Source of the DNA: a virus
Taxonomy: Duplodnaviria > Heunggongvirae > Uroviricota > Caudoviricetes
DNA: 21,692 bases
Reading direction: 5' to 3' (one strand)
IMG/VR virus record: IMGVR_UViG_2541047885_000001
Position 1 is the first letter of the stretch. Each line of letters begins with the position of its first letter. The notes under the pieces are model-generated. The model saw nothing but the letters and a program-made list of their open reading frames with translations, searched no databases and was not told the DNA's origin. Shown piece after piece: positions 35 to 21,579 of this stretch. Position numbers and translations under genes: made by a program.

Positions 35-151
35 CTTTAAATAATTCTGTACAGATTGCAGGTGAATAGCGTACTATTACCTCAAGGGTAAACGGATTGG
101 TTTCATTTTTATTAATCCGTGTAATGAACTTATGAGATATGAGGTAATGTC

Positions 152-331
152 ATGCGAAACGAAAAATTGCAGATGCGTAGAGCGCAAGCTGCCGCAAGAC
201 GTTCTTTCAATGGAAGCGTAGAGTACGTAAAAGTTACTATGACAAAAGATCACGCAAGTCGCGTATCCCGCGCTTTCTTTGATTCTCGTAACAATAAGGA
301 AAATTATGAGTTCGTCTGCGTCGCAGAATGA
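152..331 (+). CDS. Candidate small basic protein (59 aa), first gene of a possible two-gene cargo module; below the ORF-track length cutoff
   Basis: ATG at 152 with GAGGT 8 nt upstream; open frame to TGA at 329..331; overlaps the start of the downstream ORF by 26 nt in another frame. Arg/Lys-rich translation (MRNEKLQMRRAQAAARR...). Confidence 0.25.
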   Translation: MRNEKLQMRRAQAAARRSFNGSVEYVKVTMTKDHASRVSRAFFDSRNNKENYEFVCVAE

Positions 332-851
332 TAAAAATCAAATTGTCAGATATAAGGGTCGAGTATTGCATACGCAAAATTTCTCGGCCCTTTGTGCATC
401 TGATCTTGAGCTGAAGAAAGTATCTGATGCCTTTACCCAGTATTGGAAAACGGGATACCATCCATCTCTTGGTAAAGATGCTGCATTTGCTCGTCCGACA
501 GAAATGCTTAAACTAAATGTCAGGCATACTCATGTCGATAACCAAGACTATATTCCAGAAGATAGTGATAAAAAACACACTGGTAAAAAATCATCTTGGG
601 ATGCATGGAAAAATATAGCGTCTGTGCAAGTAAAATGCATACCAACAAGTGATTGCTTTTTAGTTTATTCGGTAAATCACAATCGTGATGCGCTGGTTAT
701 GTTTTTTGTTGACGCAGATGCCCACAACATAACTGAGCAAGAAGAGTTTAAAGAGGCAGCAATCACTATCAGTTATCAATTCTTTGAGAAAACAAAAACA
801 GAACCAATGCCTTTAGAAGAAGATCTTTTTTCTGATAAATGGAAGGAATAG
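306..851 (+). CDS. Hypothetical protein (181 aa), low-GC cargo gene; no family recognised
   Basis: ORF-track frame 279..851; ATG at 306 preceded by AAGGA at 296..300. Roughly 38% GC against about 50% in flanking phage genes. Followed directly by an intrinsic terminator. Confidence 0.6.
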   Translation: MSSSASQNDKNQIVRYKGRVLHTQNFSALCASDLELKKVSDAFTQYWKTGYHPSLGKDAAFARPTEMLKLNVRHTHVDNQDYIPEDSDKKHTGKKSSWDAWKNIASVQVKCIPTSDCFLVYSVNHNRDALVMFFVDADAHNITEQEEFKEAAITISYQFFEKTKTEPMPLEEDLFSDKWKE

Positions 852-871
852 CCCGCAGCGCGGGCTTTTTT
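851..871 (+). terminator. Rho-independent terminator after the 181-aa ORF
   Basis: GCCCGC / GCGGGC stem followed by a T6 tract, overlapping the TAG stop. Confidence 0.6.
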
Positions 872-943
872 GTGGACGAAACAAAAGTCAGTGCTACACT
901 CATTGACGCCACATTGAGGTGGCTTATAGATGGAAATTTCACA

Positions 944-1105
944 ATGAAAAAAGCATTTGCTGCACTGTTCGTTTTGTTGTCTCTGGTAGCGTCAACTCAG
1001 GCCTTTGCCGGTCGTTGTCAGCACGACAGCGACACTGCTGCTGACGGCTCACGCTGCGGTGGGCGTTCTGCGGATTCCCGCCCGGGCGGCGGTGGCATTC
1101 GTTAA
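944..1105 (+). CDS. Possible small secreted peptide (53 aa) with a signal-peptide-like N-terminus
   Basis: ATG at 944 within ORF-track frame 839..1105; MKKAFAALFVLLSLVASTQAFA resembles a Sec signal with an AFA-G cleavage site. Weak RBS; Gly/Arg-rich low-complexity tail. Confidence 0.25.
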   Translation: MKKAFAALFVLLSLVASTQAFAGRCQHDSDTAADGSRCGGRSADSRPGGGGIR

Positions 1106-1154: not shown

Positions 1155-1188
1155 GCACATCCCTGTGCCGCCGTTCTGTCAGAAGAAC
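1155..1188. repeat. Right arm of the 34-bp inverted repeat; overlaps the last codons and stop of ant
   Basis: Exact reverse complement of 1..34; the ant stop codon (1179..1181) lies inside the arm. Confidence 0.85.
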
Positions 1189-2123
1189 CCTGCTTTGTCG
1201 TTGATATACTCCGCGTGCGTCTGGATATCACGCAGGCATTTGCTCACACCGACGATGTAGCAGAACATGGTGGTCAGCTCCGCCGCCGCGCCCGATACAT
1301 CGTGCCCGTCGTCCTGCAACTGGTTTAGCAGATTCATCAGCAGTGAGTTCTCCGTCAGGCCGAGAACACCAGACGGAGAATGAATCAGGCTGCGGTAGCC
1401 GGGCTTCAGCGGATAACCATAACATTTTGTCTGTGTTTTAATTGCCTCACGAAGCGCATCTAACATCTTGACTGCCACTTCATCATTCTCTGATGCAGAT
1501 CCAGCAGGGAGATGCTCCCCTTCAAGCGGAACCCGAGCAACAAGAGACAACGCTTCGGCGAATTGATCTTCATCAATTTCTTTGTACGAACAGCCAAAAT
1601 GAGATTTCAGTGACGACCACATGGTGATCATCGCCTTAGCCTGTTTTTCTTTTGGCAGAGACTGACCGCGACTCATGACGAGTTGTTTAATGGCTTCCTG
1701 CTGTTCAGTGGTTATTTTACCCGGCAACGCCTTTTTAGCTTTGCGTGGGTTAACCACATGGCCTTTAGTCCAGTACTCGTAGAGCACATCGTCACACTCT
1801 TCCTGATACTGGATTACCTTGTCGCGGATTTCAGGACGGACTTTGTTAGGGCTGATGGTTTGCAACCAGCCAGCAAGTTTGCGAAGTGCCAAACAAATAA
1901 TCTCACGGCGCTGTTCATCCCCAGGAAGCTGCATTGTGATTTTCACAATGCAGGTTTTAAACCGCTGCTTCATTTTCGTAAACTGTGAAGCCCAATCCAT
2001 ACCCATGCCTTCAACGATAGGTTTCATTGGGGTGTACGGTTCTCCGTTGTGATTGACAACATAAAGTTCTGCGCCGTGGAATGGCACGTTGATAGTAGAT
2101 ACCGCTGTTGCTATACTCGTCAT
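1179..2123 (-). CDS. ant: Phage antirepressor (Ant-like), 314 aa
   Basis: Sits downstream of an Arc-like gene and divergent from an Mnt-like gene, as in P22 immI. N-terminal region looks like antirepressor N-domains; size close to P22 Ant (300 aa). Confidence 0.75.
   Translation of the reverse strand: MTSIATAVSTINVPFHGAELYVVNHNGEPYTPMKPIVEGMGMDWASQFTKMKQRFKTCIVKITMQLPGDEQRREIICLALRKLAGWLQTISPNKVRPEIRDKVIQYQEECDDVLYEYWTKGHVVNPRKAKKALPGKITTEQQEAIKQLVMSRGQSLPKEKQAKAMITMWSSLKSHFGCSYKEIDEDQFAEALSLVARVPLEGEHLPAGSASENDEVAVKMLDALREAIKTQTKCYGYPLKPGYRSLIHSPSGVLGLTENSLLMNLLNQLQDDGHDVSGAAAELTTMFCYIVGVSKCLRDIQTHAEYINDKAGFF
2089..2117 (+). promoter_or_regulatory. Sigma70-like promoter antisense to the ant 5' end (candidate Psar)
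   Basis: TTGATA (2089..2094), 17-bp spacer, TATACT (2112..2117); predicted start near 2124, opposite the ant start codon (2121..2123). Confidence 0.45.
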
Positions 2124-2197
2124 GTCGTTAATTCCTATACGTAGTTTTACGATACTGAAGCCCTGACGGTCTGGCCACCGTTGGGCTTCGCTGTTTT
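2124..2197 (+). ncRNA. Candidate sar-like antisense RNA (~70-75 nt) covering the ant start codon and RBS
   Basis: Runs from the antisense promoter to a plus-strand hairpin (GAAGCCC 2157..2163 paired with GGGCTTC 2183..2189, inner ACGGT/ACCGT stem) followed by a T-rich stretch. Complementary to the ant SD (2133..2136) and ATG. Architecture parallels P22 sar. Confidence 0.4.
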
Positions 2198-2363
2198 ATG
2201 CCACGCTATTCTTCTCACCAGTGAGTCCATACACTTTCCTCAGCTGATAGATAATCTCTGTATTGAACTTTCGGCATTCTTTTTCGCCATTTCTTTCAAT
2301 AGCTAACTTCACATCGTCCGGAAAACGAACTCGTCGTTGACACATCTCTTTTGCTTTTTGCAT
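2196..2363 (-). CDS. arc: Arc-like ribbon-helix-helix repressor (55 aa from ATG 2363; the ORF track extends to a TTG at 2399)
   Basis: ATG at 2363 with AAGGAG 7 nt upstream. Translation matches the Arc pattern (basic N-terminal beta strand, RVRFPDDV..., NTEIIYQL). Lies immediately upstream of ant. Confidence 0.8.
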   Translation of the reverse strand: MQKAKEMCQRRVRFPDDVKLAIERNGEKECRKFNTEIIYQLRKVYGLTGEKNSVA

Positions 2364-2378
2364 TTCATATCTCCTTAG

Positions 2379-2447
2379 CCCCACCGTGGGGCAAAACAAT
2401 TGTCACACCGTGCGTCATTGATGTCAAGCACACGGTGAGGCATACTT
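2379..2447. promoter_or_regulatory. Divergent Pant / Pmnt promoter region with three candidate operator heptamers
   Basis: Minus strand: TTGACA (2427..2422), 17 bp, GACAAT (2404..2399). Plus strand: TTGATG (2418..2423), 17 bp, CATACT (2441..2446). CACCGTG at 2382..2388 and 2406..2412, and its inverse CACGGTG at 2431..2437; near-palindrome CCCCACCGTGGGG at 2379..2391. Confidence 0.5.
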
Positions 2448-2483
2448 CAATCATTGCAAGTAACTCAATATTTGGTGAAGAAC

Positions 2484-2915
2484 ATGAGCAGAGAAGATCC
2501 ACAACTAAGGATCAGACTTCCCGTTGAAGTAAAAGAAAAAATAGAAATTTCTGCAAAAGCCAATAAGCGATCAATGAACGCTGAAATAGTACAACGTCTT
2601 GACACCAGCTTTCTGAAAGATATTCATGAAGATGACGTAATTTCTGCTTATGAAGCAAAAATTATTGCAAACAATGCACGACATGAAATATTAAATATTA
2701 TTTTCAAAAGAACCTTTAATGAAATTAATAAGAAAATAACACTTGGACATACAAGTTTTTATATAAACCTTAATGACCTTGAACTGGAATCACTTGCAGA
2801 TAATGATTACCAGATCATCTTTGAAAAAACATTTAATAAGCTCAATGAACTAGGTTACATCATCTGTGAAAACTCATGGGATGCAGATGGTTTTGGAATT
2901 GAAATACCTGAATAG
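2484..2915 (+). CDS. mnt: Mnt-like RHH repressor (143 aa) with an unrecognised ~95-aa C-terminal domain
   Basis: ATG at 2484 with GGTGA 5 nt upstream. N-terminus (DPQLRIRLPVEVKEKIEISAKANKRSMNAEIVQRL) closely resembles the P22 Mnt DNA-binding domain as I recall it. C-terminal domain contains an internal repeat. About 30% GC. Confidence 0.8.
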   Translation: MSREDPQLRIRLPVEVKEKIEISAKANKRSMNAEIVQRLDTSFLKDIHEDDVISAYEAKIIANNARHEILNIIFKRTFNEINKKITLGHTSFYINLNDLELESLADNDYQIIFEKTFNKLNELGYIICENSWDADGFGIEIPE

Positions 2916-3005: not shown

Positions 3006-3569
3006 TTGAAAACCATATCTATATTAAAGGTTGCATTAGGCGTCGCTATTATTTTGACTCTCTCAATATTGTTTTATTTTTACCACAAAAAAACTGCTAT
3101 TGCTCTTGATGGTCACACGGCAAACTCATTTTTCTCAGAGTACATAGTGCCGCTATCAGGAAGCGGTATAACAAATAAATATACTGACTATGACATCAAA
3201 TATGGAATTGATGATGGGAAGACTATTGTATTACATGTAATCATTAAAAACCTAATGACAGTAAATAAAAATACAGACTTTAACGATAAAAATACAATAC
3301 ATCACAACAACAGCAAAACATTAATTTCTTATAGTAGCAACATCTATACGGATAAATACCTAAAATACATATCAGAAGATACAATAAAAGAAACCCGCGA
3401 AAAGTTAAAAAACATATATTGTGCATCCGGCAGTTTTCACAAATTATCGCCGCAAGAGCGTTTATTCTACGAAGCAAGAAAACAACGTAAGTCAATAATA
3501 TTACATTATTATGCTGATTCAGGGGAATCACTCATATTTAATATTGGGGTTTCCCCTGAATCATGCTAA
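3006..3569 (+). CDS. Hypothetical single-pass membrane protein (187 aa from TTG 3006; alternative ATG at 2979), low-GC cargo
   Basis: Perfect AAGGAG (2993..2998) 7 nt upstream of TTG 3006. N-terminal hydrophobic helix ISILKVALGVAIILTLSILFYFY followed by HKK. Same strand as and just downstream of mnt-like. Asn/Lys/Tyr/Ile-rich. Confidence 0.7.
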   Translation: MKTISILKVALGVAIILTLSILFYFYHKKTAIALDGHTANSFFSEYIVPLSGSGITNKYTDYDIKYGIDDGKTIVLHVIIKNLMTVNKNTDFNDKNTIHHNNSKTLISYSSNIYTDKYLKYISEDTIKETREKLKNIYCASGSFHKLSPQERLFYEARKQRKSIILHYYADSGESLIFNIGVSPESC

Positions 3570-3580
3570 AGGTGTTTAAC

Positions 3581-6500
3581 TCACCGCATCACCGGATCCA
3601 CCTGGTTTATTAGTGGCGCAATCCAGAACAGGTTATTGCCTGGTATCAGGGTTCGGGCATTATGCACAATACGATCACCGGCATCACCATTCAACACTCC
3701 TGCGGTCACATCAATGATGCTATCCGCAAGACCAAATGACGGTCCGAATAGAGATCCTACGAATCCACGACTGGCATACCTAGACTGTGTGCCAGTGCCA
3801 AATAAAGCCCCCAGCCCAACAGCACCACCAGTAGCCTTTTCAGCCATGTTGTTATATTCCATCAATGGTCCAAGAATACCGGATCTATCTATACCCTCAA
3901 GCACCAGTTTCTCTGGTGACCAGTCAACATTTTTCCCTTTCGATGCTTCTTTAAGCGCATAGACCAGTGAGCCAAGAGCAATCTGAAATGCAGTGCCATA
4001 ATAAAATTGCGCAGTTCCTTCCTGTAACCCACCAAGTAGCGCACGGTTGTATGAAGCCGTTGTGAATGATTTAAACTGAAATATCGTTCGCCCCATTGGA
4101 GTACTCGCCCATAAAGGTGTGTCACCAATACCGGGGGTGATGATAGTGTTATTAACGTCTTTCAGAACCGCTGACTGGAATACTCCGGCAACGTACTGAT
4201 CATCCCATTTATCAAAGTTACCAATGTGCCATCCATCAATTACCTCGCCATGTTTCCCGAACTCACTGCGAATACGTGCAGCCATATTGTCGTTGATACC
4301 GAGTTTTGCCAGGCGGCGTGCAGGAAATGCACCGGACAAAATACCGTCTGAAATAACCATTCCGTTCATGGATTTGTTTATGTCATTAAAGCGATCCATG
4401 AGTGTCAGCTTGCCGAAGGCATCAGTAATTCGCTCCATTCCGGCTTCGACTGCTGTTGTCCTGGAAGAGCTGTCAACAAGATCACCAATTGCACGAGAGC
4501 GTGAATGCAGTACAGTTTCCAGTCCGATACCCATCTTCAACATCTCTTCTTTGCTGGCCTTAAATGCCGGTGATTGGGATATCTGAGAAGCATAGCCTTT
4601 CATGGTGTTACGGAAACCATTAACCATAACCCCTCTGGCCAGATCTGGAATAGCTGATACTGTCATTCCACCGAGTTTGGTCGTGAAGTTCACATCCCGC
4701 AGAAAAGCGCCAGCACGAACAAAAAACGAAGACGGATCATCAGGCATCCCATATGTACCAACAAGACGATCGCGTAATGCTGTTATGTCTCTGAGATCAT
4801 TTGCTCTTGATTTTGAAAGTCTGGACTGTTCTTTCCGTAATTCCTTTTCGTACTTTCGCATTAATGAATCGAGTTTACCCTGAGGAACAACTTCACCATT
4901 GCTCTCATAACGTGCTTTCAGATTTGCCACACTTTCGTCATATTTCGCCTTTATTTTTTCAGGCACTTCCCGTAACAGACTGTCATATTCGTCCTCAATT
5001 AATTGCAGACGCTCAGTCATAGTTCGTTTGCCAAATGTTCTCGTCAACTCAATTTCTGCTGCCGCTTCACGGATATGACGTTGCAGCACGTAATTCACAT
5101 CACTTTCAAGATAATCCCTGATAAGACTATCAGGAACATTTAATGTTCTTTCTTTCGTACTACCTGCGGCTTTTACAGAAAATACGCTGACAAAATCCTG
5201 TGGAACCTTAGCACCAGTAATTTTATTAATTACGATATCTGCTGCAATTTCAGCATCCTCAGGAACCAGTGTTTTATTTCCTCTCGACCACCAGTCAACC
5301 AAAATACGTCGAAATTTATCGCGTTCACTGATTATTTTTCCAACTTTATATATGCGTGGGAAATAGCTTGCCTGGCCTAATGCTTTCAGTTCTTCATCTG
5401 GCGGCAATAAACCAAGCTTTTGCATTTCAACTTTCACCCGATTTAATACAGTTCGCATCGCCTGCGCCGTTTCCTGAACAACAGGATTAGCATGCACATC
5501 ACCGCTTCGCATAGCATTCCCAACCTGCTGACGAAATGAATCAAAACTCATGTCACCACCATCAGCTTTATACTTTGCGTATGCCTGTTTATTTCCGACA
5601 ACAACAGCAGCTTCTTCACGCTGCCATCCACGTGTACGGGTTTCTACAGCTACCGGTGTTTCAATCCCCCTTTCATTTCCTTTAAGGGTGAAATTATTTT
5701 CGGCTAACTCCAGCGTTGTTTTTCGCACTGTCCTGGACGGAGACTCCATTAACCTTGTCAAAGGAGTAAGATAGCTCCCTGCTTTCCATGCAGCCTTTCC
5801 AACCACCCCACCAGAAACAGGGGTTAAATCATCCAGAGTCGCTGTATCAATTTTCATAGCACCAACACTACCACCATCGGAAAGCGAAGCGGCAGCCCTG
5901 TCAGTCACTGATGTAATGCTCATATTATCAAGAGCATCAGCAACCTCACGTGTGGCTGCAGCCCGGACGGATGGCGAAAGCGCAACACCAGCACTGGCAA
6001 ACACGCCGCTCATCATCGCCCCCGCTGCAACGTGAGCGGCACTTTCACCCCATGAGCGTGTTATTTGCTGATTATTCAGTACAACCTCGCTTAATGCTGT
6101 ACCGGCAGCACCAATCGCAATCTGTGAGCCAATACGCGCCAGTGCCCCTCCTTGAGCACCGGGAATAAACATTGACGCAACAGTAACCGGATCCATTCCC
6201 GCAGCAATACTGGCAAGGGTTCCAACTACGCCAGCATCAGACAATAAACGTCTGTCTTCATTTTCATCATCTATCTGCTGCTTAATCCACGCCGTTTCCT
6301 CTGGTGATCGGGAATCTGCAAATTTCGCCCCCCAGTATTCATAACCGTGCAACTCATTTTTATCAGCATATGGGTTATAACCCTCGACCGGTTCAAACTG
6401 TCTGGCTGGGCGGAAAAAACCAGACAGAATATTGTTCTGTCGCATTGCAGCCCCCCATACGGAAGGCTCAGGTGGCAATGGCTCAGGATTAGCCCCTTCC

Positions 6501-18222: not shown

Positions 18223-18300
18223 TTAAATTATTACCAATTTAACCACACATGATTTATTTATCGTAGGTAGTTGACATTTAACGCACAAATTATTACCTTT
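18223..18300. promoter_or_regulatory. AT-rich promoter-like region at the edge of the terL-portal insertion
   Basis: Plus strand: TTGACA (18271..18276), 17 bp, TACCTT. Minus strand: TTGTGC, 17 bp, TACGAT. Confidence 0.3.
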
Positions 18301-19011
18301 CAGGTAACCAAAGAGTTCATTCCGGTTACTAACCTGACTGGCTTGTCGTTAAATTGAACAGGTGGAGTGAGCTTTTATTTTGAGCAGTACGGCGTATGGC
18401 ACATGCGCCGATAGCGGTCTGGATACGTTTAAGGGGCACCCTCCCTTGCTCGGGCAAACGAACCAGGTAGCCGGAATGTGCAAGTCGAGCGGTTTTATTC
18501 CGCGCACGGGGATTCACCATCCCGGCGATCAGGTGTGACACCTCGGAAGAGACGAGGATGCAACAGGTAAGAGCATTGAGATTGATCGTCGTTCCTGGGC
18601 CCAAGGTCTGCTCGAAGTCAGTGCTCTTTCCGTTGTGGTGAATGCGCAGGCTGATGCGCACCCCGTGAACGTGGGGGAATGGGTAAGGCATAAGCCTGAG
18701 TTGGAAGACAAGCTGCGTGAATAGCCGGAAGTCAGGGTTACCCAACAAACTCAGTGAAAATCATGACGCATATCCTCTTGAGAGAGTGGCAGCTAACACT
18801 GAGCATATTTCAAGCCGGAGATCAGCACCGGCCACCACAACCCAATCACGTTAGGACCGTGATACGGCAGTACCAGGCAATGCGTGTAGCTTTGGCGGTG
18901 GCAGTTCTCCTTCTTCTGACCACCGCCCTTTTTACAGCAGAACGCCATTCCGATGACGTTGCGCTGTAAACCCTGCATCACCCGCCAAGGAAGGCACTCC
19001 GTTGATCATTC
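18300..19011 (+). ncRNA. ORF-poor ~700-nt region; candidate structured RNA or long regulatory leader (function unknown)
   Basis: No convincing ORF on either strand despite ~55% GC; bounded by a consensus -35 upstream and an intrinsic terminator placed 12 nt before the next RBS. Several GC-rich hairpins visible. Confidence 0.2.
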
Positions 19012-20947: not shown

Positions 20948-21543
20948 TGATTGCCATCCTGACGTTCTTTCAGTCTCTTCCTGGCTGCCGCTATGCGATC
21001 AGCAATTGTCACATTCACATTAACATCCAGGCGTTCTTTGAATGCGTTGACGTCGACGTGCTTACCAATCAGTTCGAGGTTCTTCACCTTGTCAGGCCAT
21101 TTAATTTTTTTGAGGATGCCAACCAGCTCTTTCTCGTCTCCACGGCCTTCGAACATGTCGGCCAGTTCGAAACCTGTCAGGTACTGCCGCCAGACCTTAG
21201 GCCATTCCGAGACCGGCTTGATGCTCATATCGTCGTTGAGAATGTCAATCACGTCCATCTGGTCGATCTCCACCAGGCGCATGAGAACGTAATCAGCACT
21301 GACGCGCATTCGTTTGTTGCGCTCCTCCATCAACTCGGCAATCCGTTTCTGAATGCGTTCATCGCGCATCATGACACTGGCTTTAACTGCCGCTGTATTT
21401 GGGGAGAATCCTGCATTAATCGCAGCCTGAGTCTGGTTTTCAGGCGTTTTGATGTATGACTGGCAATAAGCCTCCTGCATTGCTGTTAGTGGCTTAAATT
21501 GCGTTGATTTGCGTTTATAGGTTTTAGGTTCAGCAGGCATCAT
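20944..21543 (-). CDS. Terminase small subunit (~199 aa from the ATG at 21543/21540; the ORF track extends to TTG 21588)
   Basis: Immediately upstream of and coupled to terL; N-terminal region has a terminase small subunit-like pattern (LTAMQEAYCQSYIKTPENQTQAAINAGFSP). GGTGG lies 5 nt before the second ATG. Confidence 0.8.
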   Translation of the reverse strand: MMPAEPKTYKRKSTQFKPLTAMQEAYCQSYIKTPENQTQAAINAGFSPNTAAVKASVMMRDERIQKRIAELMEERNKRMRVSADYVLMRLVEIDQMDVIDILNDDMSIKPVSEWPKVWRQYLTGFELADMFEGRGDEKELVGILKKIKWPDKVKNLELIGKHVDVNAFKERLDVNVNVTIADRIAAARKRLKERQDGNQ

Positions 21544-21550
21544 AACCACC

Positions 21551-21579
21551 GTGGTAATAGTTACCGTTGTGGTAATAGT
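21551..21579. repeat. Direct repeat GTGGTAATAGT x2 (7-bp spacer) in the terS 5' leader
   Basis: 11-mer at 21551..21561 and 21569..21579, between the upstream terminator and the probable terS start. Confidence 0.5.

Follow-up and report, generated by a model that had tools for sequence, protein, structure and literature searches.

The question raised by this locus was what two overlapping genes at positions 152-851 encode, and whether they constitute a toxin-antitoxin (TA) module. The DNA analyzed, a stretch of 21,692 nucleotides referred to here as the window, belongs to a phiV10/TL-2011b-like (Uetakevirus) prophage of E. coli. On its plus strand, a small ORF with an ATG start (152-331) encodes a 59-aa protein, which is the candidate antitoxin, and a large ORF, also with an ATG start (306-851), encodes a 181-aa protein, which was assigned to the long-form YafO-family toxins and has a predicted RelE/HigB-like endoribonuclease fold. 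The two ORFs overlap by 26 nt (306-331). The small ORF is preceded by the Shine-Dalgarno sequence GAGGT (141-145, plus strand), 6 nt 5' of the ATG at 152, and ATGAGGTGATGTCATG was kept in divergent loci. The Shine-Dalgarno sequence of the toxin gene, AAGGA (296-300, plus strand), lies within the small ORF, and in most loci AAGGa/g is kept 5 nt ahead of the toxin ATG. The two-gene unit is closed by an intrinsic-terminator-like hairpin with a T-run (850-872, plus strand). The hairpin itself (850-866) has 7 bp, six of them G-C, is followed by TTTTTT, begins at the toxin stop codon, and has a centroid energy of -12.5 kcal/mol; a GCCCGC-loop-GCGGGC hairpin with a T-run was present in 9 of 11 divergent loci, with variable loops. 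Positions 1-1300 contained no match to Rfam RNA families. The layout is that of a type II TA system, with two small co-oriented genes, the partner located 5' of the toxin and overlapping it, separate Shine-Dalgarno sites, and one terminator after the toxin gene. The first-pass annotation had described an overlapping pair in which the small ORF has its own ribosome-binding site and which ends at a strong terminator, and had called the small ORF basic and rich in Arg and Lys. All of this was present as described: the Shine-Dalgarno sites were kept in relatives, the pI of the 59-aa protein is 10.0, and its N-terminal helix is Arg-rich.

Both ORFs are more than chance ORFs, because both are under purifying selection. 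The dN/dS of the small ORF was 0.2-0.4 over the 50 codons outside the overlap, with dS reaching saturation, and that of the toxin gene was 0.05-0.09, which indicates strong purifying selection. The loci used for comparison came from viral contigs and exact-protein look-ups, and the scan of species-representative genomes for relatives yielded no confirmed locus.

The 181-aa protein had been placed in no known family in the first-pass annotation, and no RelE-like signature had been recognized in it by eye. Neither statement held. The protein matched PF13957 (YafO_toxin) with an E-value of 1.1e-5 and 25.9 bits, a small margin over the Pfam gathering threshold of 25, and its residues 46-148 aligned with profile positions 3-88 of 101. 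The name 'type II toxin-antitoxin system YafO family toxin' is already attached to it by RefSeq/PGAP, both in phage TL-2011b and on E. coli chromosomes. When it was aligned directly with K-12 YafO, hhalign gave an E-value of 0.006 over 51 columns, and BLASTP detected no similarity between the two proteins. Because the PF13957 score was marginal and the direct comparison with K-12 YafO weak, membership was tested independently. In a profile search of 1.84 billion representative proteins, the family proved small, with only 70 representatives. Within it, long forms (165-200 aa) grade into short forms (131-150 aa), which have the canonical YafO size. PF13957 was matched by 32 of 59 family relatives, and none of them matched another family. 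In an alignment of 59 sequences including K-12 YafO, G56 and H76 were invariant and F43, D58, P64, S115, Y121, and H140 were at least 90% conserved; the 181-aa protein keeps every one of these residues.

The predicted structure of the 181-aa protein shows the RelE-superfamily fold, a RelE-like character that had been missed by eye. HigB2 and YoeB took the top Foldseek ranks, neither of them significantly, and no solved structure was detectable by sequence among the relatives. Roughly 80 residues of the 181-aa protein are unmatched in K-12 YafO; they make up an N-terminal extension, an insertion at residues 80-112 with pLDDT < 50, and a C-terminal tail. The acidic tail (residues 165-181, PMPLxEDLFSDKW) is conserved in long-form toxins and absent from short-form YafO. 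Sequence and predicted fold together place the 181-aa protein as a distant, long-form member of the YafO family.

We then consider the 59-aa partner. An ORF of 55-63 aa was found at the same upstream position in 47 of 47 loci, including those with toxins only 44-68% identical, and its length changes across loci stay in frame. Loss of conservation of this ORF had been named in the first-pass annotation as grounds for abandoning its reading, and the opposite was observed, both in this count and in the dN/dS values given above. The pairwise identities of the small protein and of the toxin were correlated with r = 0.90. The conserved residues of the small protein are VTMTKEHAxRVSRAFYDSRND. Its residues 27-55 are homologous to an 84-aa partner (hhalign probability 91.5%, E 9e-7) that belongs to a toxin only 34% identical to the 181-aa protein. 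Because this homology covers residues 27-55, the conserved core of the small protein is its C-terminal half, and the Arg-rich N-terminal helix its variable part.

Searches of Pfam, NCBIfam, PADLOC, and the PDB placed the 59-aa protein in no family; its sole match was PHROG 6685, which has no functional label. Full-length PHROG matches were obtained for both proteins, the toxin with PHROG 1651 (E 5e-51) and the partner with PHROG 6685 (E 3e-45). Homology of the small protein to YafN (Phd/YefM) was ruled out by comparison of its profile with YafN (hhalign probability 0.15%) and by the lack of a Pfam antitoxin family. A Pfam match to DUF6955 (E 0.04) was inconsistent, occurring in 7 of 28 family members and significant in none. 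A ribbon-helix-helix repressor (Arc/MetJ/CopG), suggested by the segment 'VKVTMTKEH', was supported by no family, model, or fold. The monomer model of the 59-aa protein consists of two helices at low confidence and had no fold match, and searches with Pfam, the predicted fold, and family profiles found no DNA-binding fold or family. In the first-pass annotation the pair had been read as a small regulator with a larger effector in a TA-like layout. The toxin family and the conserved, co-evolving gene in the antitoxin position bear out the TA part of that reading, but the role of regulator is not borne out, since no DNA-binding fold or family was seen and the one conserved palindrome upstream is also carried by phages that lack the module.

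The charges of the two proteins follow a constant pattern. In all 12 pairs compared, a basic partner (pI 9-11) goes with an acidic toxin (pI 5.1-6.7), which is the reverse of textbook RelE-type pairs; the pI values of K-12 YafN and YafO are 5.5 and 7.0, respectively. Annotation of the two genes is uneven. PGAP calls the small ORF, as hypothetical, in TL-2011b, but not in the E. coli chromosomal records examined, and in NZ_OZ121072.1 and NZ_CP157110.1, where the toxin is annotated by PGAP and the 59-aa ORF is not, the toxin looks like an orphan. In more distant YafO relatives, too, a small gene lies upstream; it encodes 56-113 aa and is always unannotated or 'hypothetical'; homology of these upstream genes to the 59-aa protein was not detectable. 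In one viral contig (L045, 4001-4535) the toxin is frameshifted, with its ORF truncated at 112 aa, and the small ORF adjoining it is intact. This pattern would be expected if loss of the toxin is tolerated and loss of the partner is not.

Two convergent antirepressor genes flank the pair: on the left a Bro-N gene, which ends at position 10, and on the right a P22-type Ant gene (1179-2123, minus strand; Pfam P22_AR_N, E 1e-44). A perfect 34-nt inverted repeat lies outside the module on both sides. Its left arm (1-34) combines the final 10 nt of the Bro-N gene upstream with the hairpin ggcacagggatgtgcc, and its right arm (1155-1188) is the 3' end of the convergent P22-type gene. Compensatory GGCGCA..TGCGCC variants of the hairpin were found in loci L031, L038, and L039. 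The repeat was considered as the end of an invertible segment or of a transposon, and this was rejected: it is the shared 3' end and hairpin of two convergent antirepressor paralogues. The term cassette, used for this region in the first-pass annotation, is right in that a perfect repeat bounds it, but the repeat is simply this shared gene end. In many genomes the module has a different right flank and lacks the 34-nt repeat.

The phage phiv142-3 diverges from the window right after a palindrome at 77-91 and rejoins it near 825, and because of this the stretch of about 92-872 is exchangeable cargo (a moron), in a slot that is a cargo-exchange hotspot. In phiv142-3 (L052, 2610-3086), Orf9 (55 aa) and Orf10 (52 aa), which are unrelated to the toxin pair, replace it after the palindrome. 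The pair was found in at least three unrelated contexts, including the tail-gene cluster of a different phage type and a site beside an OspG-kinase gene, and in other prophages relatives adjoin Bro-N and tail-spike genes. Among 5,426 complete E. coli genomes, 61 (1.1%) carry the pair, and it is complete in every one. Distant relatives of the pair in other prophage-like regions (L054, 3585-4181; L062, 3-692; L057, 2430-3134) adjoin OspG-type kinase, Bro-N antirepressor, and pRha-family genes, and antirepressor-type neighbourhoods recur for distant pairs outside the phiV10/TL-2011b group. Taken with the linkage and co-evolution described above, the two genes are real, always linked, and co-evolving, and they move together between unrelated contexts.

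Two further features of the neighbourhood were recorded. A gene at 944-1105 (plus strand) encodes a 53-aa protein with a signal-peptide-like N-terminus and a Gly/Arg-rich tail, predicted to be secreted or in the membrane; it belongs to PHROG 14503 ('membrane associated protein', moron category) and is followed by a hairpin at 1111-1128. It was considered as a third component and rejected, as it lies beyond the terminator, and many related phages without the toxin pair still carry it, which makes it independent cargo. An Arc-like small repressor gene (2196-2399, minus strand; TL-2011b annotation) adjoins Ant, and a 153-aa ORF (2454-2915, plus strand) diverges from it, an arrangement that resembles a P22 immI-type control region.

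Upstream of the pair, a promoter-like region (56-91, plus strand) contains a -35-like TTGCAG (56-61), a -10-like TACTAT (72-77), and, overlapping the latter, the palindrome TTACC-N5-GGTAA (77-91). This region belongs to the phage backbone slot, and the cargo swap junction lies directly 3' of the palindrome. It was conserved across divergent loci, with a spacing of 17-18 nt in L031, L038, and L044; a 7-nt deletion shortens this spacing in the window, and a strict sigma-70 scan of the window found no site. A four-fold tandem TGCGCAT occurs upstream of the module promoter in locus L033 (about 3557-3585) and is absent from the window.

The palindrome occurs four times in the window in comparison with 0.39 expected, at 77-91, 18293-18307, 21543-21557 (one mismatch), and 21561-21575. 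The copy at 18293 follows a perfect TTGACA at 18271, and the tandem copies lie at the 5' end of the terminase small-subunit gene. The palindrome was present in 49 of 52 loci. It also occurs in two phages without the module, with three copies in phiv142-3 and eight in phiV10. The phiV10 (L053) copies are located at 87, 3252, 20497, 31953, 32015, 32727, 35070, and 35132; copies flank the CI-like repressor gene on both sides, and others precede several operons. Because it was found in 49 of 52 loci and in module-free phages, the palindrome is probably the operator of a phage-wide regulator, predicted to be the CI-like repressor. The possibility that it is the antitoxin's own operator was rejected, as it is not specific to the module and has eight copies in the module-free phiV10. 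No conserved inverted repeat was found between the palindrome and the start of the small ORF, and no conserved private operator of the module was found, the sole conserved upstream palindrome being the one shared with phages that lack it.

These results are best explained by a type II-like TA pair, and we consider it likely that a long-form YafO-family toxin is combined here with a minimal antitoxin that binds it directly, has no DNA-binding role, and is expressed from a phage-controlled promoter. The linkage and co-evolution expected of a type II system were observed: 47 of 47 loci, dN/dS of 0.2-0.4, r = 0.90, and at least three unrelated contexts. By homology, the 181-aa toxin would inhibit translation by cutting mRNA and would use the conserved positions His76, His140, Asp58, Ser115, and Tyr121 to do so. 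The 59-aa protein would be made from the same transcript just ahead of the toxin, from its own ribosome-binding site and with the 26-nt overlap, and would most likely bind the toxin directly through residues 27-55 and so neutralise it; it seems too small, and too poor in DNA-binding signature, for a classical autorepressor. Transcription appears to start at the backbone promoter, and because this promoter carries the phage's own multi-copy operator, expression may follow the regulatory state of the phage with no private feedback loop. Such a module could serve in prophage maintenance, in host shut-off, or in exclusion of other phages. A bolder version, which we think unlikely, holds that the 59-aa protein represents a new minimal antitoxin family specific to long-form YafO, and that the module has no feedback of its own, is placed under the master repressor through the palindrome, and is expressed only upon derepression or infection by a related phage. 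If that were true, the module would be a phage-state-sensing device for host shut-off or exclusion and not a classical addiction module.

The alternative that survives best is compatible with the type II-like TA pair and concerns what it was selected for, namely anti-phage defence of the lysogen by abortive infection or superinfection exclusion; abortive infection was the second suggestion of the first-pass annotation. Variable prophage cargo hotspots often hold defence genes. The pair occupies a variable cargo slot of a temperate phage into which other small genes are swapped, its distribution is patchy (1.1% of E. coli genomes), and relatives in other prophages adjoin Bro-N and tail-spike genes, all of which would suit such a role. 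However, neither protein had a match at E <= 0.1 in PADLOC-DB 2.0, and no paper was found on YafO-type toxins in defence. A standing defence would also fit poorly, because the prophage repressor, if bound to the operator, would silence the module in lysogens. Selection for defence is accordingly a possibility that we do not favour.

The second alternative is that the small protein is not an antitoxin but a nucleic-acid-binding regulator or a separate factor, the YafO-like toxin being controlled otherwise, for example by transcriptional repression through the phage repressor or by its own acidic C-terminal tail. The strongly basic character of the small protein and its Arg-rich N-terminal helix, unlike the acidic YafN (pI 5.5), point in this direction, but the conserved part is the C-terminal half and not the basic helix, and the small protein shows no DNA-binding family or fold. 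The phage-wide operator in the promoter region and the conserved acidic tail of the toxin, which short-form YafO lacks, speak for the other means of control that this alternative proposes, whereas the strict linkage of the two genes in 47 of 47 loci and in unrelated genomic contexts, together with the co-evolution of partner and toxin (r = 0.90), argues against it. The overlapping, co-translated layout is moreover the standard position of an antitoxin. We regard this alternative as improbable.

Slightly lower still we place the view that the YafO-like 181-aa protein is degenerate or has been repurposed and no longer acts as an RNase toxin, being for instance a ribosome-binding protein or a structural phage accessory. 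All near-invariant positions of the family, both histidines included, are kept in it, although its family score is borderline and its overall charge acidic. The approximately 80 residues without a counterpart in K-12 YafO, with the low-confidence insertion at 80-112, would fit a change of function, but the gene is under very strong purifying selection (0.05-0.09), and at one locus a frameshifted toxin lies beside an intact partner, which is the typical pattern of toxin loss. Finally, it is very improbable that the small ORF is a mere upstream frame that delivers ribosomes to the toxin start by translational coupling, with a functionless peptide, as might be proposed from the 26-nt overlap, the toxin ribosome-binding site embedded in the small ORF, and the low confidence of the small-protein monomer model, because the 50 non-overlap codons are under purifying selection (dN/dS 0.2-0.4, with dS saturating) and the residues VTMTKEHAxRVSRAFYDSRND are conserved, extending to the partner of a toxin only 34% identical.

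With the type II-like TA pair as the preferred reading, the toxin is already known from automatic annotation, and what is new about the pair lies in its partner, in the long-form architecture of the toxin, and in the predicted regulatory wiring. No paper describing this phage-borne pair was found in the literature. The RefSeq-labelled toxin is present in 61 complete E. coli genomes, and because the partner gene is uncalled in the RefSeq records examined, these loci look like orphan toxins. Since distant YafO relatives also have small 'hypothetical' upstream genes, the data suggest that one or more uncharacterised antitoxin families accompany YafO toxins. To our knowledge, no E. coli RelE-like toxin is less well understood than YafO, for which no structure has been solved, and a long-form subfamily that is divergent, strongly conserved, and equipped with additional segments is useful comparative material for it. 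Since the pair lies downstream of a phage-wide operator, expression of the toxin may be linked to the regulation of the prophage. Partner exchange between toxin and antitoxin families is well known, so that current concepts are unchanged, and the value of the locus lies mainly in annotation and as an experimental lead.

The pair was compared with known systems. The closest is K-12 YafN-YafO (dinB-yafN-yafO-yafP), whose toxin belongs to the same Pfam family, PF13957, and shares with the 181-aa protein the motif positions F..YW, FGKD, RHxH, TSD..LVY, and AH; there, as here, the partner is upstream and the toxin downstream. K-12 YafO has been reported to be toxic, with rescue through YafN, and to cleave only those mRNAs that are translated, and a RelE-superfamily fold has been proposed for it (PMC2814082), while its dependence on the ribosome was questioned by a later transcriptome-wide study (PMC8546651). 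The two toxins differ in length (132 aa in K-12 and 181 aa here), and K-12 YafO lacks the extras of the long form, which are the N-terminal extension, the insertion of about 30 residues, and the acidic C-terminal tail PMPLxEDLFSDKW. The partners differ more: YafN has 97 aa and is acidic and of the Phd/YefM type, whereas the partner described here has 59 aa, is basic, and is unrelated to it. The location differs as well, yafNO being part of the SOS-regulated dinB operon and the present pair lying in a prophage cargo slot. PHROG 1651 and PHROG 6685 carry no functional label, and neither the link to YafO nor the pairing of the two families is recorded there.

HigB2 of Vibrio cholerae, HigB1 of M. 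tuberculosis, RelE, and YoeB are ribosome-dependent RNase toxins with 8-14% identity to the 181-aa protein, and their Foldseek matches fell short of significance. In HigB systems the gene order is reversed, the toxin gene preceding that of the antitoxin (PMC2814082). Antitoxins of the HigB/RelE type carry HTH or RHH DNA-binding domains, and no such domain was seen in the 59-aa partner. The pair also resembles the PaaR2-PaaA2-ParE2 modules, three-component systems of E. coli O157:H7 prophages in which a toxin of the RelE/ParE superfamily is paired with an antitoxin of about 60 aa without a DNA-binding domain, and the third component, a CI-like repressor, controls transcription. The likeness to the present locus lies in a prophage toxin with a very small antitoxin lacking a DNA-binding domain, and in the control by a CI-like repressor that is predicted here.
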